Assembly (NCBI GenBank): GCA_043813875.1
Contig: JBDRKP010000026.1
Location: 1-14,839 of the forward strand
Origin: an archaeon
Lineage (GTDB): Archaea; EX4484-52; B79-G9
Length of the DNA: 14,839 bases
Direction: 5' to 3'
A program made the position numbers and the translations under genes. Positions 1 to 14,839 of the stretch are shown one piece after another. Numbering within the stretch: position 1 is the first letter of the stretch; each line of letters begins with the position of its first letter. A model generated the notes under the pieces. That model was given only the letters and a program-made list of their open reading frames with translations. It did not search any database and was not told the origin of the DNA.

Positions 1-192
1 CACTAGCCTGCCGGAATCTTAGGGCTCGGATATAATGACTATTACCTCCTTTATTTTTTTACCTGCTCATTCCAAACCGGCATCCTTCATTTCACCTCCT
101 GTGCATATCAAGTCCATAATAAGATTCAGTTTTTCGCATGGGATATCTTGCCTGTGCATAACAATCTAATGACTACAGGAGAATATATCAAC

Positions 193-238
193 TGCGAACA
201 CATGAGCCGGACTCATGATTCGCAAAGCTTATATATAG
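193..238 (+). promoter_or_regulatory. Imperfect palindrome (candidate operator) abutting a BRE/TATA-like box
   Basis: TGCGAA(193-198)-CA-CATGAG-CCGGA-CTCATG-A-TTCGCA(219-224), directly followed by AAGCTTATATATAG, about 35 nt before ATG 272. Confidence 0.5.
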
Positions 239-271
239 TAAACAGGAATGATAATATGTCGTGAGCGCTTT

Positions 272-985
272 ATGCAGATAATTATTCCGGTGTGGTTCTA
301 TGGATATGATTCTGTCATCTACCTGATAAATTCATTTATCGGGTTTCTTCTGAGCTTTTATTTTTACAGGATATTTTCTTTGAGTTCTGAGAAGAAACAT
401 CTGTATCTTCATCTCGGATTCCTTTTTCTTTCAGTCGGTCTTCTGATCCTTTCGATAATAAGTGAATTCAGCTACCTCGCGTATGAGAATTGTCTTGATT
501 CCTCTGCATCATGTTCCCTTGGTCTCTTGGACAGCATATATTCCATCGAGGATTTCTCATATTTCGCATATTTCGGGCTATCGATATTTGCATACATCTT
601 GTTTCTTGCGGCTTATGGAGGCGAGTATGTCGATTATTCAAGAATTCTCATAATAGCCCTTCTTGTCTACCTTGTCTATATCGTCCTCCATATCACATAC
701 ATACCTGTAAAAGAGGGCCATATACTGTGGTATACATACAGGGAATATTTCAATATGGCAGCGATTGCGTTATTAGCCTTTATCTCTTTCAGGAACATTG
801 CAAATTACTTTGAGATGAAAAGCCTTAACTCCCTTCTGGTCGCGTTATCATTCAGTTTTCTTGCGCTGTATCATGTGATACGCCTGTTTTCATTCATCAG
901 CGGCCTGTATGTGCTCGGACATATATTCATGCTGCTCGCGTTCGGTGCTCTTCTCTTAATGGTGGTGAGGGTGAAGAGGAGATGA
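272..985 (+). CDS. Multi-pass (about 7 TM) membrane protein of unknown function
   Basis: ORF with about 7 hydrophobic segments and a Cys pair in a loop (CLDSSASC). ATG 272 is preferred over 248 because of TATA spacing. Stop overlaps the next start (ATGA). Confidence 0.8.
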   Translation: MQIIIPVWFYGYDSVIYLINSFIGFLLSFYFYRIFSLSSEKKHLYLHLGFLFLSVGLLILSIISEFSYLAYENCLDSSASCSLGLLDSIYSIEDFSYFAYFGLSIFAYILFLAAYGGEYVDYSRILIIALLVYLVYIVLHITYIPVKEGHILWYTYREYFNMAAIALLAFISFRNIANYFEMKSLNSLLVALSFSFLALYHVIRLFSFISGLYVLGHIFMLLAFGALLLMVVRVKRR

Positions 986-1263
986 TTTCAAGAAGGACAA
1001 AGATACAGATCTATCTTGAGATTCTACGTTATATCAAAAGCGCTGGCGGCAAACTTAAGAAGACTCACATTGTATGCAAGGCGAACCTGACGAATACAAG
1101 AGTGCAGACCTATCTTGATTTTTTACTGGCAAAAGGATTCATCACAAAAGACAGGAAGGAGGATCATACCTATTTTGTTATCACAGAAAAAGGCGTGGGC
1201 TTTCTTTCAGAGACAAAAAAACTGAAAGAGATCTCGGATGCATTCGGATTCCCTTTGTATTGA
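982..1263 (+). CDS. Winged helix-turn-helix transcriptional regulator (archaeal HTH_45/ArnR1-like)
   Basis: RRTKIQIYLEIL...KTHIVCKANL...YLDFLLAKGFI...ITEKG pattern typical of small archaeal wHTH proteins. 4-nt overlap with the upstream gene. Confidence 0.85.
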   Translation: MISRRTKIQIYLEILRYIKSAGGKLKKTHIVCKANLTNTRVQTYLDFLLAKGFITKDRKEDHTYFVITEKGVGFLSETKKLKEISDAFGFPLY

Positions 1264-1383
1264 TGATGGCTTTCACATCGACGAAAAGGTACAGAGCTAA
1301 AAGACTGCATAAAGAGTAAGTGACGCAAGAGGCAGGATTTTATGGCGCAAGTCTTTCAGGGAGTGGATGAACTGACGTGTGTA

Positions 1384-1662
1384 CTATTCTAGTTCAAACA
1401 CAGATTGCAATTTAGGTATTAATGAATCGACATCGGTCCTTTTCTTGTAAATGCCGCTGAAGGTGATTTGGCTTTCTTCAAATGAACTATCCTTTAATTC
1501 TACTCCACTAACACCAAAAACATTTTTTGCTCTAAAAAAGTCCTCTTTTTTAAATGTGGGAGTATATTTTTCAGATGCTGGACCTTTGTATGTAATTTCA
1601 ATCTCAATTTTTTTTTCTTCAACCAAATATGAAGTGCTTATATCCACTTTATTGCCTATCAT
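1384..1662 (-). CDS. Hypothetical protein (92 aa, AT-rich)
   Basis: ORF with GGTGA Shine-Dalgarno-like motif 5 nt before ATG 1662. No family recognised. Confidence 0.6.
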   Translation of the reverse strand: MIGNKVDISTSYLVEEKKIEIEITYKGPASEKYTPTFKKEDFFRAKNVFGVSGVELKDSSFEESQITFSGIYKKRTDVDSLIPKLQSVFELE

Positions 1663-1766
1663 TTTTATCACCTAATATTAATAACGATAATGTTGAAAGC
1701 TAAATATTATATATCTTAGCTATAATTGTAAGAGATTCTTTCGGTATTCTAAAAAAGATTAAAGAG

Positions 1767-1790
1767 AAAAAAAGCCTGAAAAAATCAGGC
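1767..1790 (-). terminator. Hairpin plus T-tract terminator of hppA
   Basis: Minus strand reads GCCTGA-TTTTT-TCAGGC-TTTTTTT, 14 nt after the hppA stop. Confidence 0.65.
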
Positions 1791-1804
1791 CAATGTACGC
1801 ATAT

Positions 1805-3799
1805 TCAGAACAGCGCATACTTGATAATCAAGGCAATGAAGATAAGCGCAATCGTGTTCATGACCTTGATCAGCGGATTGATTGCAGGCCCTGCGGTATC
1901 CTTGAACGGGTCGCCGACAGTATCACCGACAATAGCTGCCTTGTGCGCATCCGAGTTCTTGCCGCCGAAGTTGCCGTTCTCGATGTACTTCTTGGCATTA
2001 TCCCATGCGCCGCCGCCGTTAGACATCTGGATAGCCAAAAGCACACCCGAAAGTATCGAGCCGAGCAGAAGCCCGCCAAGTGCCATAGGCCCAAGCAGGA
2101 ACCCTACTGCAAGCGGCGCAATGACCGCAAGAAGCGCAGGGTTCGTCATCTCATGGAGCGCTGCGACAGTGACGATATCGACGCACTTCGCATAATCCGG
2201 CTTTGCCTTGTAAGTCATGATGCCTTTTATCTCTTTGAACTGTCGCCTGACCTCCTCGACCACCTTGAAACCGGCCCTGCCGACAGCCCTCATATTCCAG
2301 GAACTGAACAGGAACGGTATCATGCTGCCAAGGAGAAGGCCGACAAGCACGCGGGGATCGTTGATAGCAAATACTACAGTCTTGCCCATGATGACCTCAA
2401 TCTCATGCACAAAAGCAGCAAAGAGCGTCAACGCGGCAAGTGCCGCAGAACCGATGGCGAAAGTCTTCGTCACCGCTTTGGTCGTGTTGCCGACAGCATC
2501 CAGGGCATCGGTGATCTCTCTTGTCTTCTGTGGCAGTTTCGCCATCTCGGCAATACCGCCTGCATTATCAGTTATCGGGCCGTAGGAATCAAGAGCGATG
2601 ATCATGGCAGTAAGCGAGATCATAGCCATAACAGCTATAGCAATCCCGTAAAGCCCTGCGAAATGGAAAGAACCAAGGATAGCAGCAGATATCAGGAGAA
2701 TCGGCACTGCCGTGCTCTCAAGACCGACTGCAAGACCTGTGATAAGATTCACTGCAGAACCGCTTAGAGACGCCTCTGCAATAGATCTCACGGGCTTGTA
2801 TCTTGTCGAAGTATAATATTCAGTGATACCGAACAATGATATGCCAAGCGCAAGTCCGATTAGTGTCGTATAAAACAGGCTCATATCAGGCATATAGCTC
2901 TTTGTCACAAAGTAGAAACCGACGGCAGACAATATGCTTGTGCCGATGACGCCCTTGTAGAGCGCACCCATGATGTTCTTCTTCGCCTTCACAAAATAAG
3001 TGCCCGCAATCGACGCGAAAATAGCGATCGATCCGAGCAGCAACGGGTAAATAACATAAATATCTTTTCCAGGAAACAGAAGGCTTCCAAGAAGCATCGC
3101 GCCGATGGCAGTGATGGCATAAGTCTCAAAAAGGTCTGCGCCCATGCCGGCGCAATCGCCCACATTATCGCCCACATTGTCAGCGATCACAGCCGGGTTC
3201 CTCGGGTCATCCTCAGGAATCCCTGCCTCGACCTTGCCGACAAGATCAGCGCCGACATCAGCAGCCTTGGTATAAATACCGCCGCCGACACGCGCAAAGA
3301 GGCTGATGAGCGAAGCACCGAACCCGAAGCCGACTATGGCGAGCGGATCCTTGTACATCATGTAGAACGCGGTCACTCCAAGGAGCGCAAGTCCTGCAAC
3401 AGCCATGCCGGTCACGGCACCGCCACGGAACGCAATCTTCAATGCGCTGTTAAGGCCGTCCTTTGCAGCGTTGGCCACGCGGACATTTGAGCGTACAGAC
3501 ACGTTCATGCCGATATAGCCCGCAAGAGCAGAAAGGACTGCTCCGGAAAAGAACCCGAATGCCGTCGCATAGCTGTCTTTTATTGCGAAAGCAAGGATAG
3601 CGGTTATGATTACAGTGAATATAGCGATAGTCTTATATTCCCTATGCATGAATGCCATGGCGCCTTCGCGGATGGCATCAGATATATCTATCATCTTCTG
3701 TGTGCCTGCGTCTTTCTTCAGGACGCTGCGTGTCAGATAGATTGCAAAAAGTATCGCGGCAACTCCTCCTGCCAACACAAACTGAATTTCTGGACTCAT
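1805..3799 (-). CDS. hppA: Membrane-bound ion-translocating pyrophosphatase, K+-independent H+-PPase type (664 aa)
   Basis: Motifs GGGIYTKAADVGADLVGKVE, EDDPRNP, DNVGDNVGD, DSYGPITDNAGGIAEM, GNTTKAVTK, GGAWDNAKK, GDTVGDPFKD. Start set at ATG 3799, 8 nt after GGAGG. The ORF-track extension to 3946 runs through the tRNA. Confidence 0.97.
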   Translation of the reverse strand: MSPEIQFVLAGGVAAILFAIYLTRSVLKKDAGTQKMIDISDAIREGAMAFMHREYKTIAIFTVIITAILAFAIKDSYATAFGFFSGAVLSALAGYIGMNVSVRSNVRVANAAKDGLNSALKIAFRGGAVTGMAVAGLALLGVTAFYMMYKDPLAIVGFGFGASLISLFARVGGGIYTKAADVGADLVGKVEAGIPEDDPRNPAVIADNVGDNVGDCAGMGADLFETYAITAIGAMLLGSLLFPGKDIYVIYPLLLGSIAIFASIAGTYFVKAKKNIMGALYKGVIGTSILSAVGFYFVTKSYMPDMSLFYTTLIGLALGISLFGITEYYTSTRYKPVRSIAEASLSGSAVNLITGLAVGLESTAVPILLISAAILGSFHFAGLYGIAIAVMAMISLTAMIIALDSYGPITDNAGGIAEMAKLPQKTREITDALDAVGNTTKAVTKTFAIGSAALAALTLFAAFVHEIEVIMGKTVVFAINDPRVLVGLLLGSMIPFLFSSWNMRAVGRAGFKVVEEVRRQFKEIKGIMTYKAKPDYAKCVDIVTVAALHEMTNPALLAVIAPLAVGFLLGPMALGGLLLGSILSGVLLAIQMSNGGGAWDNAKKYIENGNFGGKNSDAHKAAIVGDTVGDPFKDTAGPAINPLIKVMNTIALIFIALIIKYALF

Positions 3800-3837
3800 T
3801 TGAGGTTCCTCCATATTATCGTATAGTTTATAATTAG

Positions 3838-3944
3838 TGGTCCGGATGAGATTTGAACTCACGACCCCCACGTGCCTGATATATTCTGAAAAGAACAGAA
3901 TCTTATTATCAGCGTGGTGCTCTAACCAGCTGAGCCACCGGACC
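3838..3944 (-). tRNA. trnI: tRNA-Ile(GAU) with 33-nt intron at canonical position 37/38 (intron 3874-3906)
   Basis: Acceptor GGTCCGG/CCGGACC plus A discriminator, D arm GCTC/GAGC, anticodon stem CCACG/CGTGG with GAT at 3910-3908, T arm GTGAG-TTCAAAT-CTCAT. BHB motif: CTGA pairs with intronic TCAG, with 3-nt bulges TA^A and GC^A. CCA is not encoded. Confidence 0.97.
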
Positions 3945-3989
3945 ACATTGTTCCAAATATAACTGATTGTTGTTTATTTTTGAAAAAAC

Positions 3990-4004
3990 TTTATAAGCTT
4001 TGTT
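3990..4004 (-). promoter_or_regulatory. BRE/TATA-like promoter of tRNA-Ile
   Basis: Minus strand AACAAAG-CTTATAAA, about 45 nt upstream of the tRNA 5' end. Confidence 0.5.
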
Positions 4005-4227
4005 ATTGTTTTTAGATAAAAGAAAAGAACAAGAGTAATTTATACGCGATAATCATACAAAATCACCTGGCTGGGGCTAAAAATATGCGTTTTACCTTCA
4101 CATGATTACCTGTAGCACAAATATCGCATCACTCACATTATCATTGTATAATAATACTCGTAATCGAACTCTTCACGGCAATTGCCTGCAGCATTCTTAT
4201 CCATCTTCATCATCTCCATTGATTGTA

Positions 4228-4332
4228 TATAGTAAACGTCATAACTTTTTGGACTAATGACGTTTCCATATAGATTGATGTCTATCGGTTCATTGGTTAT
4301 ATTTGTCCAGCGAGTAACGACATCAACTATAG
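4228..4332. repeat. Bipartite hairpin element, family 1, 'empty' form (A arm + B arm)
   Basis: A: TATAG-T-AAACGTCAT...ATGACGTTT-CCATA (4228-4270). B: TATAG-A-TTGATGTC...GACATCAA-CTATA (4269-4331). Homologous to 8070-8153 and 8468-8530. Confidence 0.85.
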
Positions 4333-4709
4333 TAAAACAGGGGGTGCAAACTGATTCCCAAAAAGCATAAAAATGTATAACCCTGCTTTTTTCTGGAAAA
4401 CTCGAGCTCAGATGAATAGCAAGTCAATCAAGCTATGCAGCAGGCTCTAAAAGCAAGGGCTATTTTAAAATTACACGGTTTTAGAAAAGGAGTTCATGGG
4501 TCATCTGTTTTGTGGTATTTTTTGTAGAATCATCCCCGAATGGTATCCGCATTTATTAATCAGGGCAAAAGTCACTCTAGATGTCACATGTTTCATGGAT
4601 TTCATAACGACTTTTAGAGTGTTCATAATACCAATTAATATATTAGAACAAAAAGTATTTATATTTATCGCATATTTTCTTTTAAATGTATTTTAACAAT
4701 CCATCTCAT

Positions 4710-5945
4710 ATGGACGAGAATCTCTGTACGAGATGCAAGGGGAAAAACCTCTGCGGCAAGCCGTTTTGTACCATACTGTCAAATGTGGGGCAGTTCTCAA
4801 AAGTCATCGAGAACACGAGCGAAAATTTCACCGGCACAAGCCCGCCAAGCTGTTTCGTCGGCCGCACCGATTACCCCAGAGTCAACCTTAACATACTTAC
4901 GCCTTCATATGAAGACAAATATTCATGGACAAGGGACAGCCCCTCCTTCTGGTACAGGAAAGGATTCAAGATCCCGGACATCCTGAAAAGAAGGTCAGAC
5001 ATGGTCGCTGTCCGGTCAAAAGTCGATGTGAAGGCATCGGGCGACAGATTCCTTGATATCGCCCAGGAGATAGCTCAGGCAAAAAACCAGGTCGATGCAG
5101 AATTCTGGCTGAAAAAGAAACCGCGATTCAATATATCCTTCGACTCGAGGCTTGCGCCCATCGGCTCTCCTGCTGAGGTAGAAAAGGCGAAGCTTATTGG
5201 CAATGTATCTGTGTCGCGCCCTGTCGACAAGGCAGTGAGCGATACGGACCTGAAGGCCACCGGGGCGATAGAATATCTCCACCAAAAAAATATCGACGAG
5301 AACACAATAACAAAAATTTTGTCGCTCGGTCTCCTCGGCCTTGAGAAGAACAGGAAGCTTGTGCCCACAAGATGGTCAATAACCGCTGTTGATGACATGA
5401 TCTCAAAAAGACTTATTGAAAAGGCAAAAGATTTCAATGTAACAGGCAGCTATCAGGTATTTTCAAATACCTACCTTGGCAACCACTTCGAGATACTTAT
5501 CATACCGCGCGAATGGCAGTTCGAGGTGATAGAGACCAAGTTCGAGGGGAGCGTCTGGAACCCTGACGGTCAGTCGCCGGTGATATTTTCTGATTATGAA
5601 GGCTACTATGGCAGAAAGACTTATGCGTCAGAAGTCACAGGCGCATATTATTCGGCAAGGCTTGCGGCGCTCGAGTATCTTACAAAGATCAAAAAACAGG
5701 CTGCTGTCCTGTCGATAAGGGAGGTCTATCCTGAATATGATACGCCTATGGGGGTGTGGGTGATACGCGAGACTGTACGGGGCGCATTCCAGAACAGACC
5801 GACGAGCTTTGATGCGCTTGATGATGCGCTGGCTTTTATGAAAGGGCGCCTGAGGTTGCCGTTTGGGCGCTACATGAAAGAGAGCAAACTGCTTCTGAAC
5901 ATCAGGACCCAGAGTACCCTCATGAATTTTGTCGGGAAATGTTAA
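4710..5945 (+). CDS. nreA: Nre-family archaeal DNA repair protein (PCNA-interacting)
   Basis: N-terminal CxxCKGxxLCGxxxC, SPPSxFVGRxxYP, RKLVPTRWSITAVDD, GAYYSARLA, PMGVWVIRE and C-terminal PIP box QSTLMNF. TATA-like TTTTAAAT about 25 nt before ATG 4710. Confidence 0.93.
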   Translation: MDENLCTRCKGKNLCGKPFCTILSNVGQFSKVIENTSENFTGTSPPSCFVGRTDYPRVNLNILTPSYEDKYSWTRDSPSFWYRKGFKIPDILKRRSDMVAVRSKVDVKASGDRFLDIAQEIAQAKNQVDAEFWLKKKPRFNISFDSRLAPIGSPAEVEKAKLIGNVSVSRPVDKAVSDTDLKATGAIEYLHQKNIDENTITKILSLGLLGLEKNRKLVPTRWSITAVDDMISKRLIEKAKDFNVTGSYQVFSNTYLGNHFEILIIPREWQFEVIETKFEGSVWNPDGQSPVIFSDYEGYYGRKTYASEVTGAYYSARLAALEYLTKIKKQAAVLSIREVYPEYDTPMGVWVIRETVRGAFQNRPTSFDALDDALAFMKGRLRLPFGRYMKESKLLLNIRTQSTLMNFVGKC

Positions 5946-5974
5946 GAAGAAGAAAAACATGAAAAAACCAAAGC

Positions 5975-6079
5975 TATAGTCAAGGCACGAATTAATTGAG
6001 TAACGTGCCTTGCCATATACATCAAGGCATTTTGGTTTTTTGTTGAATTTTGTTCATTTATTTCATGCCTTGAGTATAG
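5975..6079. repeat. Bipartite hairpin element, family 2, 'empty' form
   Basis: A: TATAG-T-CAAGGCACG...CGTGCCTTG-CCATA (5975-6017). B: TATAC-A-TCAAGGCAT...ATGCCTTGA-GTATA (6016-6078). Homologous to 13411-13454 and 13570-13631. Confidence 0.85.
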
Positions 6080-6090
6080 TAAAAACTGAT

Positions 6091-6600
6091 TTGGACAAGC
6101 CAATTACAGAGCTTGTGAGCAAAAGTGACCACAGAACATTAGGGATCTGGGCAGCTGACTGTGCTGAGCGGGTATTACCCTACTTTGAAGAAAAATATCC
6201 TCTAGACAATCGTCCCCGAAAAGCTATAGAAGCACTCAGAACATGGGTTCAGACTGGCGTGTTTAAAATGGCTGATATACGAAAGAGTTCACTTACAGCT
6301 CATGCGGCAGCTCGTGAAGTGAAAGAAAATGATGATGCAGCCCGATCTGCTGCCCGTGCCGCAGGTCAAGCGGTGGCGACTGCGCATGTTCCTACTCATG
6401 CTATCGCAGCTGCGGTCTATGCAGCATCCGCGGTTCGCGATGCAACCGGCTCCATTGATGATACTACTAAGGAACGAGATTGGCAATACCAACACTTGCT
6501 CGATATGAACAAAACATTTGGTACAACTTATCCTACAAAGCAAATGCTCTGGAGGTCTCGGCAAAATCTCTCTTTGCCAGCATCAAAATTATATTTTTAA
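6091..6600 (+). CDS. Imm5-like 'putative immunity' helical protein
   Basis: DHRTLGIWAADCAERVLPYFE...RPRKAIEA...AARAAGQAVATAHVPTHA signature. TTG 6091 is the likely start. The ORF-track N-terminus (6010-6090) is largely translated hairpin element. Confidence 0.8.
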   Translation: MDKPITELVSKSDHRTLGIWAADCAERVLPYFEEKYPLDNRPRKAIEALRTWVQTGVFKMADIRKSSLTAHAAAREVKENDDAARSAARAAGQAVATAHVPTHAIAAAVYAASAVRDATGSIDDTTKERDWQYQHLLDMNKTFGTTYPTKQMLWRSRQNLSLPASKLYF

Positions 6601-6711
6601 CTCAGCTATATTCGTGATTAGTTTCGTGCCACCTATAATTCACTCGTTGATTCACTCGTTAGTTGCATCATAAATGAACATACCTTTATAACTGAGGCTG
6701 CATTTTAGATT

Positions 6712-7956
6712 ATGATGGAAAATACAACATCATTTAAACATCTGAACTTAATACCGGCGCTCGAAAAAGCACTGACCAAACAAGGATATACTGTACCCAC
6801 ACCCATACAATCAAAGTCAATCCCGGGCCTGTTGCAGGGCAGAGATCTGATCGGCATCGCGCAGACAGGCACTGGCAAGACGGCAGCATTCATATTGCCG
6901 ATACTGCAAAGGATGACCGAAAAACATCCACGGGAAATCAGGACCCTGGTACTTGCTCCCACGCGGGAACTTGCTGCACAGATCGGAGAAAGTTTTTCTG
7001 CATACGGTGAGTTTCTCAGATTCAAACACACAGTGATTTTTGGTGGAGTGAGCCAGGGACGGCAAGTCCAGGCCTTATCTGACGGTGTAGACATTCTTGT
7101 TGCAACACCCGGTCGGCTGCTTGATTTGATGAACCAGAGAAAACTCACACTGGATAAGATAGAATTTTTCGTATTGGATGAAGCAGACAGGATGCTTGAT
7201 ATGGGATTCATCCATGATATAACAAAAATAATCAGAAGATTACCGCATAAAAGACAATCATTTTTTTTCTCAGCTACAATGTCCCCGGAGATCAACAGGC
7301 TTGCAAAAACACTGCTCAATGATCCCATCCATGTCGAAGTCACAGCCCAGGCAACTACTGTTGAGCGCGTAAGACAATGCATCTATTTTGTTGACCAGTC
7401 CTCAAAAGAAAAATTATTGCTTGAACTCCTGAAACAGGAACATCTTACAAGTGTTCTGGTTTTCACCCGGACGAAACATCGGGCAAACAAAGTAGCATTA
7501 TTTCTTCGCAATAATAATATCTCCTCTGACGTGATCCATGGAAATAAATCACAAAACGCAAGAACCAAGGCAATCTACGATTTCAGAACCGGCAGAACCA
7601 AAGTATTGGTCGCGACCGATATTGCTGCGCGAGGGATAGATATTGATGATATTTCGCATGTCATTAATTTTGAACTCCCGAACGAACCAGAAAGCTATGT
7701 CCACAGGATCGGCAGGACTGCCCGGGCCGGAGCGGACGGTACAGCATTTTCATTCTGCTCAGCCGATGAAAGGGGTTATCTTAAGGATATAGAAAGATTG
7801 ATAAGACAAAAGATTGAAGTCATTGATCATAGATTTCATTCAGATGTCGCTCAAAACGCAACAGGTGTAGCAGCCAAATGCGCTGCAAAAAAGAGGAAAC
7901 CATTCTCTAAAAATTTCAATCATAACAATAGGCCTAGACGTGGTTTTAGAAGATGA
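6712..7956 (+). CDS. DEAD-box ATP-dependent RNA helicase, RhlE-like
   Basis: Q motif (GYTVPTPIQ), [48 protein letters not shown] and a basic tail. TATA-like CTTTATAA about 25 nt upstream. Confidence 0.95.
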
Positions 7957-8069
7957 ATGATGCCATATATATCGGGATTTGTTTTGTTATTGCTTCTTGG
8001 TTCCCCAGGATTCGCCTTCGGCACTTGATCATGTTGCAGTCCCGCCTTTGTGCTTGGAGATTTAGGAAG

Positions 8070-8547
8070 TATAGTAAACGCCATAACTTTTTCATGGCAT
8101 TTGCGTGCCAAGCTTTCGAGACAAGCTCAAAATAGACGAATGGCGTTTCCATACATGTAAAAATAGAGATGCTATTTTTACTGTCCAGCGAATCTTTGAG
8201 ATTCGCCCGGATCATTAAAAATCGTTTTACGATTTTTATGATTTCGAAAATTCATGGAAATTTATTGGTATATTGGAATATTTCCAAGCTTTTTCATCGC
8301 CACTATATGCGATGAAAATTTGTTCCAAATTTTCAATTTTCGAAATCACTAAAAATCCAATTCATATAGTGGATTTTTGTGATGACAAAAATCGAGGCTC
8401 TCGATTTTTAGTCATTCGAAATGGGTGAGCATTTTGAAAATCCAGCGAATCTTTGAGATTCGCCAAGATAGATTGACGTCTGTTGGTTTATTGGTTATAT
8501 TTGTCCAGCTATTAACGACGTCAACTATAGTTATGCGAGCAACTATA
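8070..8547. repeat. Bipartite hairpin element, family 1, 'filled' form with internal hairpin chain
   Basis: A arm 8070-8153, about 315 bp chain of 8 hairpin units (8153-8469), B arm 8468-8530 and mini-hairpin TATAGTT...AACTATA (8526-8547). Exact 24-bp direct repeat at 8184-8207 and 8441-8464. Confidence 0.85.
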
Positions 8548-8572
8548 TAATAAAATCTACCAAAAGTACAGT

Positions 8573-9640
8573 ATGGACCCGATTTATACATTCATCATTC
8601 CAATAATCGTAATCTTTTCCATATACTTCGGCGTGCATTACTATGTCTATTCACGGTTGCAGAAACTTTTTCCAAAAATCAGGATCAAGGGGGCAATCTG
8701 CATCCTGGCATTCATGCCCATCATATCAATGATGATTGGCCGGTCATACTATAACATATTCATAAGGATATTTGATGTAATATCATTCAGCTGGATAGGA
8801 ATAATCTTCTTCCTGATCCCGATACTGATCACATGGGAACTCCTGCGCTCCCAAATAAAGCTGGACCAGAAGACCTGGCAGAAAATCATACTGACTACAA
8901 CAATCATAATATCACTCACAGCAATCATCAACGGCCAATCAATCACCGTTAAAGAGATAGATATCCCTCTGTCTGGCCTCAAAGAGCCGCTGAAGATCGT
9001 GCAGCTTTCAGACATACACCTTGGAACCACCCACAACTCTGAATTCCTGGCAAAGATCGTAGAAAAGACCAATGAACAGAATCCTGACATCATCTTCATA
9101 ACAGGCGATCTCTTTGACGGTGCAGGCGGCACAAGAGAACACACGATCAAATCCCTGGATTCACTGGCTGCAATGACATATTTCGTAACAGGAAACCATG
9201 AGACCTATATCGGCATCGGCAAGATAGAAGAAATACTAAAAACAACAAACGTGACATTCTTAAGAGACCAATCTACAGAATACAAAGGACTGCAGATAAT
9301 CGGCATGGACAACCCTGCAAGAGACAACCAGTTCTCAAACCCCGACCTCGCGAAGATAGAAATAGACGGAACAAGACCGTCGATACTCCTTTACCACCAG
9401 CCGCTGGGAATGACTGAAGCGGATGAAAGCGGCATAGACCTTCAGCTATCCGGGCACACGCATAACGGCCAGATATTCCCGTTCAATCTCATACAAAAAC
9501 GCTTCTATCCCATGGTCAATGGACTCTACAAGATAGGAGATATGTACCTTTATGTCTCCCCCGGCACAGGGACATGGGGACCACCGATGCGTCTCGGCTC
9601 AAGAAATGAGATAACTGTCATAAACCTGTTCCCTGCCTGA
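8573..9640 (+). CDS. Membrane-anchored calcineurin-like metallophosphoesterase (YkuE/YaeI-like)
   Basis: N-terminal TM helices, then SDIH, GDLFD, GNHE, YHQP, GHTHNGQ and GTGTWGPPMR motifs. Confidence 0.92.
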   Translation: MDPIYTFIIPIIVIFSIYFGVHYYVYSRLQKLFPKIRIKGAICILAFMPIISMMIGRSYYNIFIRIFDVISFSWIGIIFFLIPILITWELLRSQIKLDQKTWQKIILTTTIIISLTAIINGQSITVKEIDIPLSGLKEPLKIVQLSDIHLGTTHNSEFLAKIVEKTNEQNPDIIFITGDLFDGAGGTREHTIKSLDSLAAMTYFVTGNHETYIGIGKIEEILKTTNVTFLRDQSTEYKGLQIIGMDNPARDNQFSNPDLAKIEIDGTRPSILLYHQPLGMTEADESGIDLQLSGHTHNGQIFPFNLIQKRFYPMVNGLYKIGDMYLYVSPGTGTWGPPMRLGSRNEITVINLFPA

Positions 9641-9683
9641 AGAAACCAGCAGTATATCCAACAATCCCAAAGATTCAGAGCAC

Positions 9684-9722
9684 AAAAGAAACCGGTGTTT
9701 CAAAAAAACACCCGATTCTTTC
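9684..9722. terminator. Imperfect stem-loop downstream of the metallophosphoesterase
   Basis: AAAAGAA-ACC-GGTGTTT-CAAAA-AAACACC-CGA-TTCTTTT. Confidence 0.4.
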
Positions 9723-9817
9723 ACCTCTTAATGCATTCAACCAGAGACCCATAACCTCAACTCTATACATTTATATTCCAGCAGCGCCAAATAATCATCA
9801 CAAGCAGGTGTAAAGAT

Positions 9818-10402
9818 ATGCTATTCGGGATAATATGCGAAACTGACGATAAGAAAGAACACAGGCTGATATTCACATCAGATGTCTCTGCATTGCATTT
9901 CAAGGCAGGGACGACATTCTCAAAAGAGGATTTCAAAGACATGCTGGAACACATAGACGCAGACTGCAAGATGTTCCGTGGAAATGCAAGGACAAGCCAT
10001 TGCACAGAAAATATAGCCCCGAAAGAAAAAACAGGTCCAAGATTCATACTGTTCCGCCATCTTGAGAAGAAAAAAAGAGAGACTGAGGTCAAAGTAAACA
10101 GGATAGACCTCAACGAGATCAACAAAAAAAATGAAACGCTGATAAAAGAGATGCTAGATTCGGAATGGAATAGCGTGAGGATAGTCCAATCATATTCTCT
10201 TTCCACATCCGATTCAGTCGAGGAGTTCTATGGAAAAAAAGATGAGAAACTTCCAAAAAAGGAAGATGAGGGGAAGAACACAATAGCTGAAACAAAAAAA
10301 TCCAATGCTGTAGGCAATGGTATCGACAAAACTGCGCCGGACTTTGGAGGCGCGATGAAAAAAATATATGATAAACTGAAAACAGTTAATCGAAGAAACT
10401 AG
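9818..10402 (+). CDS. Hypothetical protein (194 aa, charged C-terminal half)
   Basis: Long ORF with upstream AGGTG and plausible codon usage. No family recognised. Confidence 0.7.
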   Translation: MLFGIICETDDKKEHRLIFTSDVSALHFKAGTTFSKEDFKDMLEHIDADCKMFRGNARTSHCTENIAPKEKTGPRFILFRHLEKKKRETEVKVNRIDLNEINKKNETLIKEMLDSEWNSVRIVQSYSLSTSDSVEEFYGKKDEKLPKKEDEGKNTIAETKKSNAVGNGIDKTAPDFGGAMKKIYDKLKTVNRRN

Positions 10403-10465
10403 AAACCAGGATGGTCAAGAATAAATTATCACGCAATAAAATAAGTATCCTGAAAGGCAATGACT

Positions 10466-10678
10466 TCAATGCTGCCTCATAATCAATTCGATATCTTCCT
10501 TCTTTATGGTCTTTCGGCCTGCATGTCTTGAAACAGCTACCGCTTCCTTGGCAAGATCTGCTGCAATCTCTTCAATCACATCCCTCAAGGCCTCAGCGCC
10601 GCTTTCAGAAACCCGATCAGCGCCGTTGTTCCTCAATATCCTGTCAAAAGGAGCAGATGTCATCGTATGTTCAATCAT
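10466..10678 (-). CDS. Archaeal histone (HMfA/HMfB family)
   Basis: APFDRILRNNGADRVS...HAGRKTIKKEDIEL histone-fold signature, 70 aa. Confidence 0.95.
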   Translation of the reverse strand: MIEHTMTSAPFDRILRNNGADRVSESGAEALRDVIEEIAADLAKEAVAVSRHAGRKTIKKEDIELIMRQH

Positions 10679-10739
10679 ATTATCGCCAGACTATTGTTTG
10701 GCGATGAATATTAAATATTTATTGTATTTAAGTATATTT

Positions 10740-11228
10740 ATGGAAAAACTCTATATTCTGGACTCTACTGTCTTCCTCGAGACAGAAACTGGCTTCCTTG
10801 CTGGCAAAGCATGCGCAACAGTCTATGACGTGGCTGAAGAGATGAAAAGCACAAAGGCGTCAATCGAATTCGACAAGATGGTCCGCCTCGGACTAGAGAT
10901 AATAGAGCCGGAAAAAACATACATTGATGAAGCGGAAAAAACAGCAAAATCCACAAACGACAAGGTATCCTGCGCAGACAAAAAAGTCGTGGCGCTGGCG
11001 CTCCATTTCAAAGCGAAAGGCAAAGATGTCGCCGTCGTCTCTGATGATTATGGCGTCCAGAATCTCTGCAAGCACTTGAACCTCGAGATAGTCCCACAGT
11101 CCCAGAAAGCCATAAGGCAAAAACTGACATGGCTCAAGAAGTGCAGCGCATGCGGCAAACGGGTCGAATCGTTCGAAGACATCTGCCCTGTCTGCGGCTC
11201 GCCGCTGAAATATGTGCCGAAGCGATGA
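10740..11228 (+). CDS. nob1: Nob1-like PIN-domain endoribonuclease with C-terminal zinc ribbon
   Basis: ILDST, ADKKVVALA, SDDYGVQN PIN motifs and CSAC...CPVCG. True start is ATG 10740. The upstream ORF extension is antisense to the histone. Confidence 0.88.
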   Translation: MEKLYILDSTVFLETETGFLAGKACATVYDVAEEMKSTKASIEFDKMVRLGLEIIEPEKTYIDEAEKTAKSTNDKVSCADKKVVALALHFKAKGKDVAVVSDDYGVQNLCKHLNLEIVPQSQKAIRQKLTWLKKCSACGKRVESFEDICPVCGSPLKYVPKR

Positions 11229-11323
11229 GTTTAAGGTCAAAAGTCAGTATAAGTCCATATATTTGATTTTTGGATTACTAACAAAAAGAGGGGCATGTCC
11301 CACGGACAGATTTTTGATTTGAA

Positions 11324-12328
11324 CTAACCAGGTAAAATTTCTCTCAAAAAACCATTCGGGAAAAAATCAAATTTATAGTCTTTTATTGTATTATCGAACT
11401 CTATTGATTTAATCTCATCACTAAAATCCTCTCGGAGCATATACATAATATCTTGGAGTTCTTGAACAACCTTTACCTGCATATGGAAGATTATATCTGC
11501 TGCTCCAAATCCCAGCATTATATAATTAGTTTGTTTAAAACTTTTTAGTCTATTGATAAGGGCCTTTATTCTTTCATCAGAACGGCTGCTTAGCTTTATT
11601 TTAATGATATACCAATGAAGCCCCAGTTTTTCTGTAAACATATTTGGTCTGAAATGTTGTATCAATCCTGATTTTATCATCTTTTTCATGCGATAATAAA
11701 TAGTCATTCTATTTTCTTTCAATTCTTCTTCTAGTAAAGCCAATGATTTCCGCCCATCTGTAGAGAGCGCCGAAAGAATTTTTAAATCGAGATTATCTGT
11801 TTTATAGGGTTGAATTTTAATAGAAGGGAACTGAAAAGCATATTTTTCAAAAAGTACATTGTATGGTAAGAAAATATTTTCAGATATGAAAAATATTGAA
11901 TAATGATCAATTAAAAAAGGAAAGTTTGTTTCGAGTTTACTAATTATTTGATTTAGATGAAGTGTGTCTTTATACTGAAAACTGGCGGCAAAATCCCAAC
12001 TACCTGCAAATTCGAGAATTTCTACAACAAATGGGCTTTCAATCAAATAAGAGATAAATTGTTTTATTTTTATTTTATCTAGGTTCATAAATTTGAAGAA
12101 AACAAGGGATGAAGACCATCCAAGCTTCTTAATATCTATTATTGTTGTGATGTTGGTCATAATCCTTTCTTTAATTAACTTATCGATTCGGTACCGAACA
12201 ACATCTTTAGACATATGGCTATTTTTTGAGATTGTTGAGTATGGCGCCCTTCCATTTTTAAATAGTTCTACAAATATTTTTTGATCTTTTGAATCAAGTG
12301 TCAATAGATTTTCGGTGTATTTTCTCAT
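11324..12328 (-). CDS. Lrp/AsnC-family regulator with two tandem HTH + RAM units
   Basis: LDSKDQKIFVELFKNGRAPYSTI and DNLDLKILSALSTDGRKSLA HTH starts, each followed by a RAM-like domain (GSWD, GAADI). AT-rich. Confidence 0.9.
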   Translation of the reverse strand: MRKYTENLLTLDSKDQKIFVELFKNGRAPYSTISKNSHMSKDVVRYRIDKLIKERIMTNITTIIDIKKLGWSSSLVFFKFMNLDKIKIKQFISYLIESPFVVEILEFAGSWDFAASFQYKDTLHLNQIISKLETNFPFLIDHYSIFFISENIFLPYNVLFEKYAFQFPSIKIQPYKTDNLDLKILSALSTDGRKSLALLEEELKENRMTIYYRMKKMIKSGLIQHFRPNMFTEKLGLHWYIIKIKLSSRSDERIKALINRLKSFKQTNYIMLGFGAADIIFHMQVKVVQELQDIMYMLREDFSDEIKSIEFDNTIKDYKFDFFPNGFLREILPG

Positions 12329-12422
12329 ATTACTTAAAATGAACGAATATACATATAAATCTTTTTATTAAGCGTAAAATTGAATGAGAATCTACATTAT
12401 ATGCAAAAGACATATATGTGTG

Positions 12423-13298
12423 ATGGAGTTCAACAAAATCCCAGCTATTGATTTGAATGAGACGCAACTTAAAACGGGCCATTGGAATGTAATTGATAAA
12501 ATCTCAAAGAAGAGGATAAATCTTACGACAAAGACTGAAAAATTAACAAATGGAATAGTCGATATTTCTAGTTCTCTGACAAAAAGTTCTTCTGGCAGCA
12601 CGCTTACAAAGTCAAAAATGCTTGAATTGGAAGCACTAATATTGAAAGAGAAACTAAATATAAGTGAAGAGAAAGCCATATTAAGTTATGATGAAGTTAA
12701 AGGGGCGTTACCACGATTACAGCATTTCTATGAAGTTTTTGAAACGAACCTAGAAGAAGAATTCGTAAATGATTTTTTGAATGGTAGAAAAGAGCTTAGA
12801 GATTATTTACTATATAATAGATTTGTTAAACTAATAACGAACGAAAAGAATCTAGCAAAAATTTCAAAAAAAGATTGTGTCCTTTTCATTGGTAGTGGAC
12901 CACTTCCAATAACCGCTATTCTCTTAAATAAGTTTACAAAATGCTCTGTAGACTGTTATGACAAAAATAACATATTCGCAAACATATCCAAAAGAGTGAT
13001 AGAAAATCTGTCACTTTCCGACAAAATCAAGATTTATAATGGAAAAGGAGAAGACCTTTCTGGAAAGAAGTATTCCGTAATTATAATCGCACTCTTAGCC
13101 AAACCTAAAGATAAAATATTGCAGAACATATGGAATGAATCAATAAAAGGCACCAAAGTAATTTGTAGAACAACAGATGGTATACGTGAAGCATTTTATG
13201 AAAAAACTACCCCAAATCTGTTTATAAAATACACCTGTACAAATAAGGTGTTTGCAAAACATGATCAGACAATATCATCGGCTTTATTAATAAAATAA
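12423..13298 (+). CDS. Nicotianamine synthase-family SAM-dependent enzyme
   Basis: FIGSGPLPITAILL motif, helical N-domain FY...LEEE...LYNRFVKLITNE, IALLAKPK and RTTDGIREAFY. ATG 12423 is preferred (12384 possible). Confidence 0.88.
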   Translation: MEFNKIPAIDLNETQLKTGHWNVIDKISKKRINLTTKTEKLTNGIVDISSSLTKSSSGSTLTKSKMLELEALILKEKLNISEEKAILSYDEVKGALPRLQHFYEVFETNLEEEFVNDFLNGRKELRDYLLYNRFVKLITNEKNLAKISKKDCVLFIGSGPLPITAILLNKFTKCSVDCYDKNNIFANISKRVIENLSLSDKIKIYNGKGEDLSGKKYSVIIIALLAKPKDKILQNIWNESIKGTKVICRTTDGIREAFYEKTTPNLFIKYTCTNKVFAKHDQTISSALLIK

Positions 13299-13410
13299 TT
13301 CGATTGTATAAAAATAGCTCTCTTGTGACTTTTTCGCGTATGAATCGACTTTTGCTTTGCAAAAGGAATATAACCTGTGCTTTTAAGACTCCACTTCATT
13401 ATGCCTAAAT

Positions 13411-13632
13411 TATGGTCAAGGCACGAATAAATTGAGTATTTATGCCTTGTCATATCCGAAAAATTGCAATGCAATTTTTGGATTTCGAAAATTTATTCTA
13501 AATTTTCAATTTTAGAAATTCGAAATGGGTGTGCATTTCGAAAATCCAGCAAATTGTCAATTTGCTCGGATAGATGAAAGCAAGTTGATTTCTTGTTGAA
13601 ATGCGGTCATTTATTTCTTGCTTTCACTATAG
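13411..13632. repeat. Bipartite hairpin element, family 2, 'filled' form
   Basis: A: TATGG-T-CAAGGCA...TGCCTTG-TCATA (13411-13454). 116-bp insert TCCGA...TCGGA (13455-13570), homologous to the 8153-8469 chain. B: ATAG-A-TGAAAGCAA...TTGCTTTCA-CTATA (13570-13631). Confidence 0.85.
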
Positions 13633-13648
13633 TCCGATGGACTTACTT

Positions 13649-14803
13649 CTACAAAAGACTCAAAAGATAAGGCAGCGCCACAAAAGTCCCGATGGAACTG
13701 CCAAGATTCGCAAGCGCAGCTATCAGGAGGATTCTTGATACCCTGTTATTGTAGAAACCCTTGAATGTCGTCACTTCATTCAAAGCCTCGAAATCCTTCA
13801 CTCTCGGCTCCCTGATCTTCGCCTCGACGAGTCCTGCTACCATGCCGGCGCCAATGGCCGGGTTCAGCGATGTGAAGGGTGCTGCGATGAAAGCCGCAAG
13901 GATAGTCAATGGGTGCGCAAGCGCAACCAGAGCGCCGAGAGCAGACAGCGCACCGTTGATCAGGAACCAGTATATGATCATATTGAAAGCGAACTCAAAA
14001 GAATTGTGATGCATGAACCCATATGCTACAATGCCGACAAACACCAGCGGCACAAGGTAAGCCACATACTTCACCCACTTCGATCCTTCGGGAATCATCT
14101 CAAGCGGCGCGATATCCTCTTTCTTCTTCAGGTGCTTTTTGATGCCTTCTATGTGGCCGGCGCCGACAACAGCGACAATCTTCTTTCCCGGGGCAGCAAG
14201 TATCTTGTTTGCGATATAGATATCCCGCTCATCTATCAGGACCTTCTTTGCAGACGGAATCTCACGCCCGAGCTCTTCCATCATCTGGGTGATCATATCT
14301 TTATCTTTCAGCTGCTCTACCATCTCCTCCTCAATCTGTTCAGGATCTATAAGGCCGCTGATAAGGCTATACATCAGCTTGAACTTCTCGCCAATCCCCA
14401 TCTCCTTCCACGCCCTCTTCAGCGTAATCTGGATATCGCGATCAAGAAGCACGATATGTGCATCTGACTTCTTGCCTGTCTTTATCGCCTCGACCATCTC
14501 CGCACCGGGCCTTACCTCAAGATCCTCACCGAGCCTCTTCTGGAAGCTTGCAAGCAGCAGGTTCGCAAGAAAAAGATATGTCTTTCCTTCTTTTATGATC
14601 TCGGTGATTTTCGTGTCTTCCCACTTCTTCTTGTCGGTGATGGTCTTGTAGCGCTTGTCGCAAAGTTCGACACCTACTGTATCCGGCTTTTCGCGAAGAA
14701 TTGTCTCATTCACAAGCTTTATGCTCTCTTTTGAGACATGAGCAGTGCCCACAAGAACTATTTCCCTGCCCCCGACCTTAATGCGGTCGATGTTTTTCAT
14801 CAT
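13649..14803 (-). CDS. TraB/PrgY (GumN) family protein with C-terminal membrane domain
   Basis: VGTAHVS, VELC, PGAEM, DRDIQITL, LIDERD, VVGAGH and APFTSLNP motifs. Confidence 0.93.
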   Translation of the reverse strand: MMKNIDRIKVGGREIVLVGTAHVSKESIKLVNETILREKPDTVGVELCDKRYKTITDKKKWEDTKITEIIKEGKTYLFLANLLLASFQKRLGEDLEVRPGAEMVEAIKTGKKSDAHIVLLDRDIQITLKRAWKEMGIGEKFKLMYSLISGLIDPEQIEEEMVEQLKDKDMITQMMEELGREIPSAKKVLIDERDIYIANKILAAPGKKIVAVVGAGHIEGIKKHLKKKEDIAPLEMIPEGSKWVKYVAYLVPLVFVGIVAYGFMHHNSFEFAFNMIIYWFLINGALSALGALVALAHPLTILAAFIAAPFTSLNPAIGAGMVAGLVEAKIREPRVKDFEALNEVTTFKGFYNNRVSRILLIAALANLGSSIGTFVALPYLLSLL

Positions 14804-14839
14804 CTATCTTAATGCAGAAAATGTTTTTTTATAGTTATT

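Follow-up and report, generated by a model that had tools for sequence, protein, structure and literature searches.

Repetitive extragenic palindromes (REPs) are imperfect palindromes with a conserved tetranucleotide at the 5′ foot; differences between REP types keep the stems complementary, and bacterial interspersed mosaic elements (BIMEs) amplify in tandem, as set out in the portion of PMC3333891 devoted to them. The tetranucleotide of canonical REPs is given as 5′ GT[AG]G in the relevant section of PMC6006769. IS200/IS605 elements are excised from, and inserted into, the lagging-strand template, according to the part of PMC5027513 on their mechanism. Here we describe a family of small hairpin elements from a 14,839-nucleotide stretch of archaeal DNA (contig JBDRKP010000026.1, positions 1 to 14,839, forward strand; the window), which carries four copies. 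The window is contig C26 of G000, an archaeal metagenome-assembled genome (MAG) of 1.64 Mb in 90 contigs, 91.5% complete. Filled and empty insertion sites, copy number and patchy spread show that the element is mobile DNA. We are inclined, with moderate confidence, to regard its copies as small non-coding, non-autonomous pairs of hairpins moved by an enzyme that reads TATAG together with hairpin shape, and that handles single-stranded DNA as in REP/BIME or IS200/IS605 systems.

The unit consists of TATAGT, hairpin A, CCATATAG, zero to five internal modules of ~58-60 nt, hairpin B and CTATA, in that order; elements range in size from 104 to 460 nt and are non-coding. In the compact form, TATAGT is followed by hairpin A (9-bp stem, 14-nt loop), CCA, TATAG, a single A, hairpin B (8-9-bp stem, ~36-nt loop) and CTATA. 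Modules are placed between A and B or within the loop of A, the latter in copy 3 of the window. The top strand of hairpin A reads TATAGT followed by the stem, and so does the bottom strand of hairpin B; the unit is thus a pair of inverted hairpins whose tails meet at CCATATAG.

One close likeness is to the REPs, BIMEs and REP doublets forming hairpins (REPINs) of Proteobacteria. As far as these are covered in the pertinent parts of PMC3333891, PMC6006769 and PMC3116915, the element shares with them short imperfect palindromes located between genes, a conserved short motif immediately 5′ of the hairpin foot, inverted hairpin doublets, tandem or modular amplification, and complementary stem changes between types. 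It differs in its motif, (T)ATAG plus one nucleotide, which is analogous in position but is not GT[AG]G; most of the 65 B copies retain 5′ ATAG, and the 32 aligned A copies retain TATAGT. The two hairpins of the element are unequal (loops of 14 and ~36 nt), which gives it a polarity, and its host is a DPANN-type archaeon in which no RAYT (REP-associated tyrosine transposase, TnpA-REP) gene flanked by the element was found.

Read directly from the forward strand, hairpin B of copy 2 (6018-6076) consists of TAC (6018-6020), A, TCAAGGCAT (6022-6030), a 34-nt loop, ATGCCTTGA (6065-6073) and GTA (6074-6076). Hairpin B of copy 4 (13571-13629, same strand) consists of TAG (13571-13573), A, TGAAAGCAA (13575-13583), a 34-nt loop, TTGCTTTCA (13618-13626) and CTA (13627-13629). 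A preliminary description of the window had noted four compensated stem differences between these two hairpins, and each is indeed mirrored on the opposite arm: C/G is replaced by G/C in the outer triplet, and the remaining changes fall at positions 2, 5 and 9 of the 9-bp stem. Its manual loop comparison was reproduced by script (both 34 nt, 27 of 34 positions identical). The hairpins had been placed correctly, but their ends were drawn with two surplus flanking bases per side, which is harmless. The pairs reported for family 1, AAACGTCAT/ATGACGTTT (4234-4265) versus AAACGCCAT/ATGGCGTTT (8076-8148) and TTGATGTC/GACATCAA (4275-4326) versus TTGACGTC/GACGTCAA (8473-8524), are also as described. 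What had escaped notice is that both of the matching arms are right halves (hairpin B) of a mobile, modular repeat present throughout the genome.

Iterated nhmmer searches of the 1.64 Mb of G000 gave 65 copies of hairpin B (70 with a covariance model) and 40 copies of the short-loop hairpin A. In a strict search, hairpin A was found upstream of 46 of the 65 B copies, at quantised A-B spacings of 3-4 nt (n=29), 56-60 nt (n=10), 118-120 nt (n=3) and 172-180 nt (n=4); this search skips decayed copies, such as copy 4 of the window, and also copy 3 with its spacing of ~319 nt. The internal modules are themselves hairpin pairs with a repeat step of ~58-60 nt. Copies 1 and 2 of the window have relatives of 98-99% identity on other contigs of G000. 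Several stem variants coexist in multiple copies in this genome: TTGATGTC (ten copies), TTGACGTC (eight), TCAAGGCA (seven), TTAACGTC (six) and TTGACATC (six). The only end sequence common to the subfamilies is TATAGT/ACTATA, which argues that a long sequence-specific terminal repeat is not the recognised feature. Further families have a like architecture with other stems (GAATTCAAC, GAATCCAAC, AAAAAGCAC), some of them with a short-loop B, and are built as TATAGT-hairpin-CCATAT-hairpin-CTATA (for example, C30:15899, C33:10573, C34:7547 and 20642, C44:6163 and 6537). They stand outside the 65 copies and are not captured by the B covariance model.

The central proposition of the preliminary description, that pairing and not sequence is maintained, is supported by alignments of 65, 32 and 43 copies and by the internal modules. 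Significance was assessed from the number of cells changed on both sides, compared with 500 shuffles; the counts are of sequences, not of events. These larger alignments, proposed at the outset as a check, revealed strong covariation in hairpins A and B, none of the 500 shuffles reaching the observed value. For hairpin B (65 copies), 93.3% of 774 cells are paired (78.3±0.8% in shuffles), 128 cells are double-sided (39.8±5.5 shuffled) and six of the eight inner pairs covary; shifting the partner by 1-3 columns, as a control, brought pairing down to 20-45%. The 8-bp helix of hairpin A (32 copies) is 99.2% paired, with covariation at six of eight pairs and 71 double-sided cells (20.4±3.6 shuffled). 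Copies from other public MAGs (n=43) have 26 double-sided cells versus 10.0±2.0 in shuffles (0/500), in a set that leans towards structure because it was picked by the family-1 loop pattern and aligned to the model. In the modules, 166 of 171 stem cells are Watson-Crick and five of nine pairs occur as two Watson-Crick types (19 full-length copies out of 32 nhmmer hits). Perfectly paired B stems exist as at least 11 different haplotypes in G000, implying at least ten pair replacements as a floor on the number of events. Mismatched B haplotypes are mostly singletons and perfect ones are multi-copy, a pattern that fits neutral decay after insertion combined with selection among the lineages that are still copying.

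Beside the compensated stems, the hairpins retain conserved asymmetries: a bulged A in most copies of hairpin B, and a 2x3 internal loop (GT/CCA) in 32 of 32 aligned copies of hairpin A. Neutral correction of palindromes by template switching, which the preliminary description had named as a competing cause of the matched changes, would erase these features and is unlikely to be the whole story.

The evidence for mobility comes from relatives of G000. We compared G001-G005 in detail, within a genus set of eight genomes including G000, and extended the search to 41 related genomes; the genomes of the genus set are 68-91.5% complete. Copy 1 (104 nt) occupies the spacer that separates a pyrophosphatase/tRNA from an Nre-family gene. 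It is missing in the same-genus G001 and G002, where both flanks are conserved; TATAGTA is present once in the empty site and at both junctions when the site is filled. In G002, in turn, an oppositely oriented copy follows immediately on the stop codon of a DEAD-helicase gene, and the collinear G001 locus is empty (..CAAAATATGGACC.. in G001 versus ..CAAAATA[TATAGTG...GAGTATA]GAAC.. in G002). A third filled/empty case, obtained by blast of the relatives' loci against G000 and with TTATAGTC at the empty site, is too diverged for a clean reading. In these two clean pairs and one messy one, the breakpoints lie within TATA(G)T. Given that 2-7 nt are repeated at the junctions, a TA duplication looks the same here as duplication-free insertion beside TATA(G), the latter being the mode of IS200/IS605-derived elements, which insert 3′ of a fixed tetra- or pentanucleotide. 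The flanks have no palindromic character: on the right, after CTATA, we find R in 50, T in 39 and, at +6, A in 46 of the 65 copies, and the left flank is A/T-rich with a weak preference for A only. An empty site for copy 4 was sought but not found: conservation in the relatives is confined to the TraB side, and the low-GC genes do not lie beside TraB there. Contigs from four DNA runs also yielded no empty sites; the pieces were short and of low depth, and joints between different copies looked chimeric.

A covariance model of hairpin B, matched across the 41 related genomes, detected the element in 18, including all seven other genomes of the genus (13-86 matches each), and detected no element in the other 23; counts range from 0 to 86 overall. 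Outside the genus the element is sparse, with 1-6 matches in four other genera from three families of the order. Most public MAG records that contain it bear the title 'Candidatus Nanohalarchaeota archaeon', a DPANN label. True copies are also present on MAG contigs titled Methanosarcinales, 'Makaraimicrobium' and Bacteroidota (L100, L105, L161, L115, L120); mislabelling or mis-binning of short contigs is a likelier explanation for these than transfer across phyla. In viral contigs there were four pattern matches but no real copy (best score, 24 bits).

We then considered how the copies are oriented. For 52 of the 65 G000 copies (p=1.2e-6), the G-rich strand is the one that reads from A to B; this applies on 36 of 43 contigs, and to 43 of 47 copies where |skew| is at least 0.1. 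Adjacent copies on the same contig are co-oriented in 20 of 22 pairs. GC skew per contig is about ±0.1-0.2 in G000, with AT skew of opposite sign (C54, C53 and C39, for example), and does not follow gene strand (Spearman -0.03; the element strand has a coding share of 0.496). To our knowledge, such strong strand asymmetry of the replication type is unusual for an archaeon; the window contig is an exception, with a weak skew of -0.03. The G-rich strand is the conventional proxy for the lagging-strand template, and GC skew serves here as a proxy for replication direction. In the relatives we used the contigs with the best-listed element matches (20 each for G001, G003 and G005, 11 for G004 and nine for G002). 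Concordance with G000 was 16/22 in G001, 9/10 in G002 (the only one significant alone) and 7/10 in G004 (one match dropped for a short flank). The orientation bias is real in G000, and G001, G002 and G004 lean the same way, but it is not general.

How might such a family spread? The enzyme would recognise TATAG, a very short motif found at each hairpin's foot, together with the shape of the hairpin and not the letters of the stem. Only lineages whose stems still pair would be copied onwards, and this selection among element lineages would give rise to the compensated differences between subfamilies, while single inserted copies would decay neutrally. Stems would change in matched pairs because the fold, and not the letters, is needed for spread. 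Recognition of TATAG plus geometry would account for the coexisting stem variants, the Watson-Crick-only stems and the retained bulges and asymmetric loops. The hairpins may act as single-stranded DNA at the replication fork, as REP/BIMEs and IS200/IS605 ends do with HUH (Y1) enzymes; this suggestion is based on the orientation bias relative to GC skew, structure-based recognition and the non-palindromic target taken together. In the sections of PMC5027513 and PMC3119063 that describe them, IS200/IS605 ends and palindrome-associated transposable elements (PATEs) have subterminal hairpins at both ends, insert beside a short sequence, are oriented with the lagging-strand template and, in the case of PATEs, are non-coding. 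The present element likewise has hairpins at both ends and no coding capacity, and it may also insert beside a short sequence and in an orientation linked to that template. It differs from PATEs in that its ends are unlike the G+C-rich hairpins of the resident IS200-type elements, no TnpB was found, and the orientation bias is not universal.

Several results weigh against this reading. The orientation bias was not replicated in G003 (15/27) or G005 (15/29), and pooled over the relatives only 62 of 98 copies are concordant, although G005 reaches 12/13 where |skew|>0.2, a cut chosen post hoc. With DNA parameters both strands fold equally well, so that folding energy does not name an active strand. 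The insertion junctions are equally compatible with TA target duplication by a cut-and-paste DDE transposase, and the elements could possibly be transcribed. No autonomous partner was found among Y1, TnpB, IS630 and ISAzo13 candidates. The resident IS200-like Y1 transposase was rejected as a partner, its own G+C-rich hairpins being unlike the element, and a search with the element model beside Y1 genes gave nothing convincing in these incomplete genomes (best match, 19.6 bits). Moreover, RAYTs are unreported from Archaea in the portion of PMC6006769 that deals with their distribution, where only IS200-type Y1 enzymes are recorded. Since the genomes are only 68-91.5% complete, the absence of a Y1 or RAYT partner is not proven. 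Y1 transposase genes (PF01797) occur in three of the eight genus genomes, G000, G003 and G005, which also have the highest element counts (70, 49 and 86, respectively); this is a weak and non-independent hint. The search for TnpB gave no match.

A bolder form of the single-strand reading, which we offer tentatively and hold to be rather doubtful, is that DPANN-type archaea have their own counterpart of the REP/RAYT system. It would be read by structure, single-stranded and coupled to replication, with a TATAG foot and an enzyme other than the known RAYTs (a divergent HUH protein or another structure-specific nuclease or recombinase). The system would build modular hairpin arrays, insert into promoter sequence of TATA-like type and mark breaks of synteny in very small genomes.

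The alternative that survives best is that the element is a MITE (miniature inverted-repeat transposable element) moved by cut-and-paste by a DDE transposase of the IS630/Tc1-like type, with TATAGT...ACTATA representing TA plus a short terminal inverted repeat, and with the hairpins as by-products kept perfect by template switching or gene conversion inside palindromes. Elements of the IS630/Tc1 type duplicate a TA target, and both filled sites can be interpreted as carrying such a duplicated TA. In family 2 (copy 2) the outermost 26 nt at either end show 85% inverted complementarity, and G000 has one IS630-family transposase gene. Yet the coexisting multi-copy subfamilies share only 6 nt of their ends; bulges and asymmetric internal loops are conserved beside compensated stems; the flanks around TA are non-palindromic; and the replication-linked orientation bias in G000 would be unexpected for cut-and-paste transposition of duplex DNA. 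The single IS630 gene was tried as the parent and rejected, because its copy has neither TATAGT ends nor clear inverted repeats. Overall, we consider a DDE-driven MITE unlikely.

The element resembles bacterial MITEs and modular repeats such as Correia/NEMIS, BOX and ERIC in its length of 100-460 nt, inverted ends, intergenic location and possible TA duplication. Like MITEs, it has terminal inverted repeats (TATAGT/ACTATA) in all families and is small and non-coding, and its modular build recalls the A-(B)n-C-like arrangement of pneumococcal BOX. It differs from MITEs, BOX and ERIC in that its shared terminal repeat is 6 nt, its stems vary and yet pair, and the TATAG junction recurs between modules. 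No parent insertion sequence with the ends of the element was found on checking IS630 and ISAzo13. The latter family was rejected as a parent, as its gene lies away from its flanking elements and the family occurs in one of the 41 genomes, versus 18 for the element. The ISAzo13-family transposase gene itself (C20:14413-16638 in G000; L196) is located at a contig end, between two inverted element copies, and is the sole one among the 41 related genomes. In the literature searched, the element family seems to be undescribed, while its kind is known; the search did not extend to the supplementary lists of an automated census of archaeal MITEs (PMC11602168), which could contain it.

Strong covariation in hairpins A and B would also be expected of non-coding RNAs, be they small RNAs or leaders and trailers acting in cis, whose fold is selected and whose copies spread secondarily. 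An RNA selected for its structure should contain many G·U and few A·C pairs. In the B stems 496 of 520 cells are Watson-Crick, four are G·T (that is, G·U), eight are A·C and 12 are other, so that the strand test by G·T versus A·C bias suggested in the preliminary description, once run, revealed no wobble bias and no sign of RNA-level constraint. Folded with RNA parameters, 56 of the 65 B hairpins are more stable on the top than on the bottom strand, a figure that is not controlled for composition and that reflects the T/G-rich loops. Based on a crude ORF (open reading frame) map, in which 86% of G000 is called coding, 57 of the 65 B copies are intergenic, and the ORFs around the eight 'inside' copies look over-extended (for example, 6010-6600). 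The downstream gene is co-oriented with the element in 41 of 64 cases (the upstream gene in 30 of 63), and the right end supplies a TATA-like box. However, copies reside in divergent, tandem and convergent spacers, copy 4 lying between two 3′ ends, and presence/absence polymorphism with 0-86 copies per genome points to mobility of DNA. A scan of the window with Rfam 15 at E<=1 found no family matching the element, only a tRNA and one sub-threshold snoRNA. An RNA function as the source of the pairing therefore appears highly improbable.

Integron attC sites likewise conserve structure over sequence and are recognised as folded single-stranded DNA with extrahelical bases; their core sites R''/R' are RYYYAAC/GTTRRRY. 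When the element was compared by eye with this consensus, the family-1 ends deviated at two of seven positions and family 2 did not match. There are no cassette ORFs, the hairpins of the element adjoin each other instead of each following a gene, and no integron integrase was seen nearby, although no search aimed at integrases was made. That the elements serve the host as polar chromosome elements (attC-like recombination sites, or replication or segregation signals) kept in orientation relative to the fork by selection is scarcely credible: it would suit the strong G000 bias (52/65; 43/47 where |skew|>=0.1) and the primacy of structure over sequence, but G003 and G005 have no such bias, the element is absent from 23 of 41 relatives and varies from 13 to 86 copies within the genus, unlike an essential function, and housekeeping genes lie in both orientations between copies.

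The four copies of the window are all on the forward strand. Copy 1 (4228-4331; compact, family 1) comprises TATAGT (4228-4233), the A stem (4234-4242/4257-4265, 14-nt loop), the CCA linker, TATAG (4269-4273), hairpin B (ATAG-A; stem 4275-4282/4319-4326) and CTATA (4327-4331); its DNA fold has -14.7 kcal/mol and a z-score of -3.7. Copy 2 (5975-6078; compact, family 2) comprises TATAGT (5975-5980), hairpin A (5981-5989/6004-6012) and the hairpin B at 6018-6076. Its DNA fold has a z-score of -5.8, and two 99%-identical copies exist elsewhere in G000 (C42, C79). Copy 3 (8070-8529; expanded, family 1) has an A stem at 8076-8084/8140-8148 enclosing a 55-nt structured loop, ~319 nt of internal hairpin modules (8149-8467; one module match at 8143) and hairpin B at 8468-8529. 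Copy 4 (13411-13631; expanded, family 2) has a decayed left end, TATGGT (13411-13416), hairpin A with stem mismatches (13417-13449), two internal modules (~120 nt) and hairpin B within 13570-13631; a copy on contig C68 matches the region 13405-13633 at 94% identity.

The neighbourhood of these copies has several features of its own. A tRNA gene with room for an intron (3838-3944, reverse strand, 107 nt) was detected by Rfam (57.8 bits), missed by ARAGORN, and is conserved in G001 and G002. In G001, G002 and G005, the Nre-family gene is directly followed by a homologue of the ORF at 9818-10402. In the window the two are instead separated by 3.9 kb (5945-9818) with genes for an Imm5-like protein, a DEAD-box helicase and a metallophosphoesterase. 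Copy 2 is at the left edge of this stretch and copy 3 separates the helicase from the phosphoesterase; G001 and G002 have the helicase beside an NrdR-like gene instead. At 5945-9818, a boundary of rearrangement or gene capture coincides with the repeats. Another stretch, 11300-13400, has ~30% GC compared with 44% for the genome and encodes a double Lrp/AsnC-type regulator and a nicotianamine-synthase-like protein; it is bordered by copy 4 and was not found beside TraB in the relatives. An archaeal histone-fold gene (10466-10678, reverse strand) overlaps the 5′ extension of the forward-strand ORF 10506-11228, whose true start, judged by eye, is probably further downstream. Another type of small repeat, in which an A-run is followed by a hairpin and a T-run (ACAATAAAAAA...TTTTTTATTGT), occurs at C10:10762, C36:2670 and C39:16482 of G000 and in L082 (alignment columns ~236-315). 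A related stretch is located between the pyrophosphatase start and the tRNA in G001 and is absent in G002.

What began as a pair of hairpins spotted by eye is now an element family, defined by a model, its boundaries, the target TATA(G)T and its phyletic range. The family explains many of the contig breaks in these MAGs and marks points of rearrangement. For the discovery of RNA motifs it provides a caution, as the strong covariation seen here most likely reflects selection at the DNA level on a mobile element. The element, which has a TATA-like end, is often located 10-80 nt upstream of genes and may thus reshape promoters in genomes that have little DNA to spare. If the single-strand reading is true, REP/BIME-like biology would reach into the Archaea, and the element would point to an enzyme that recognises structure.

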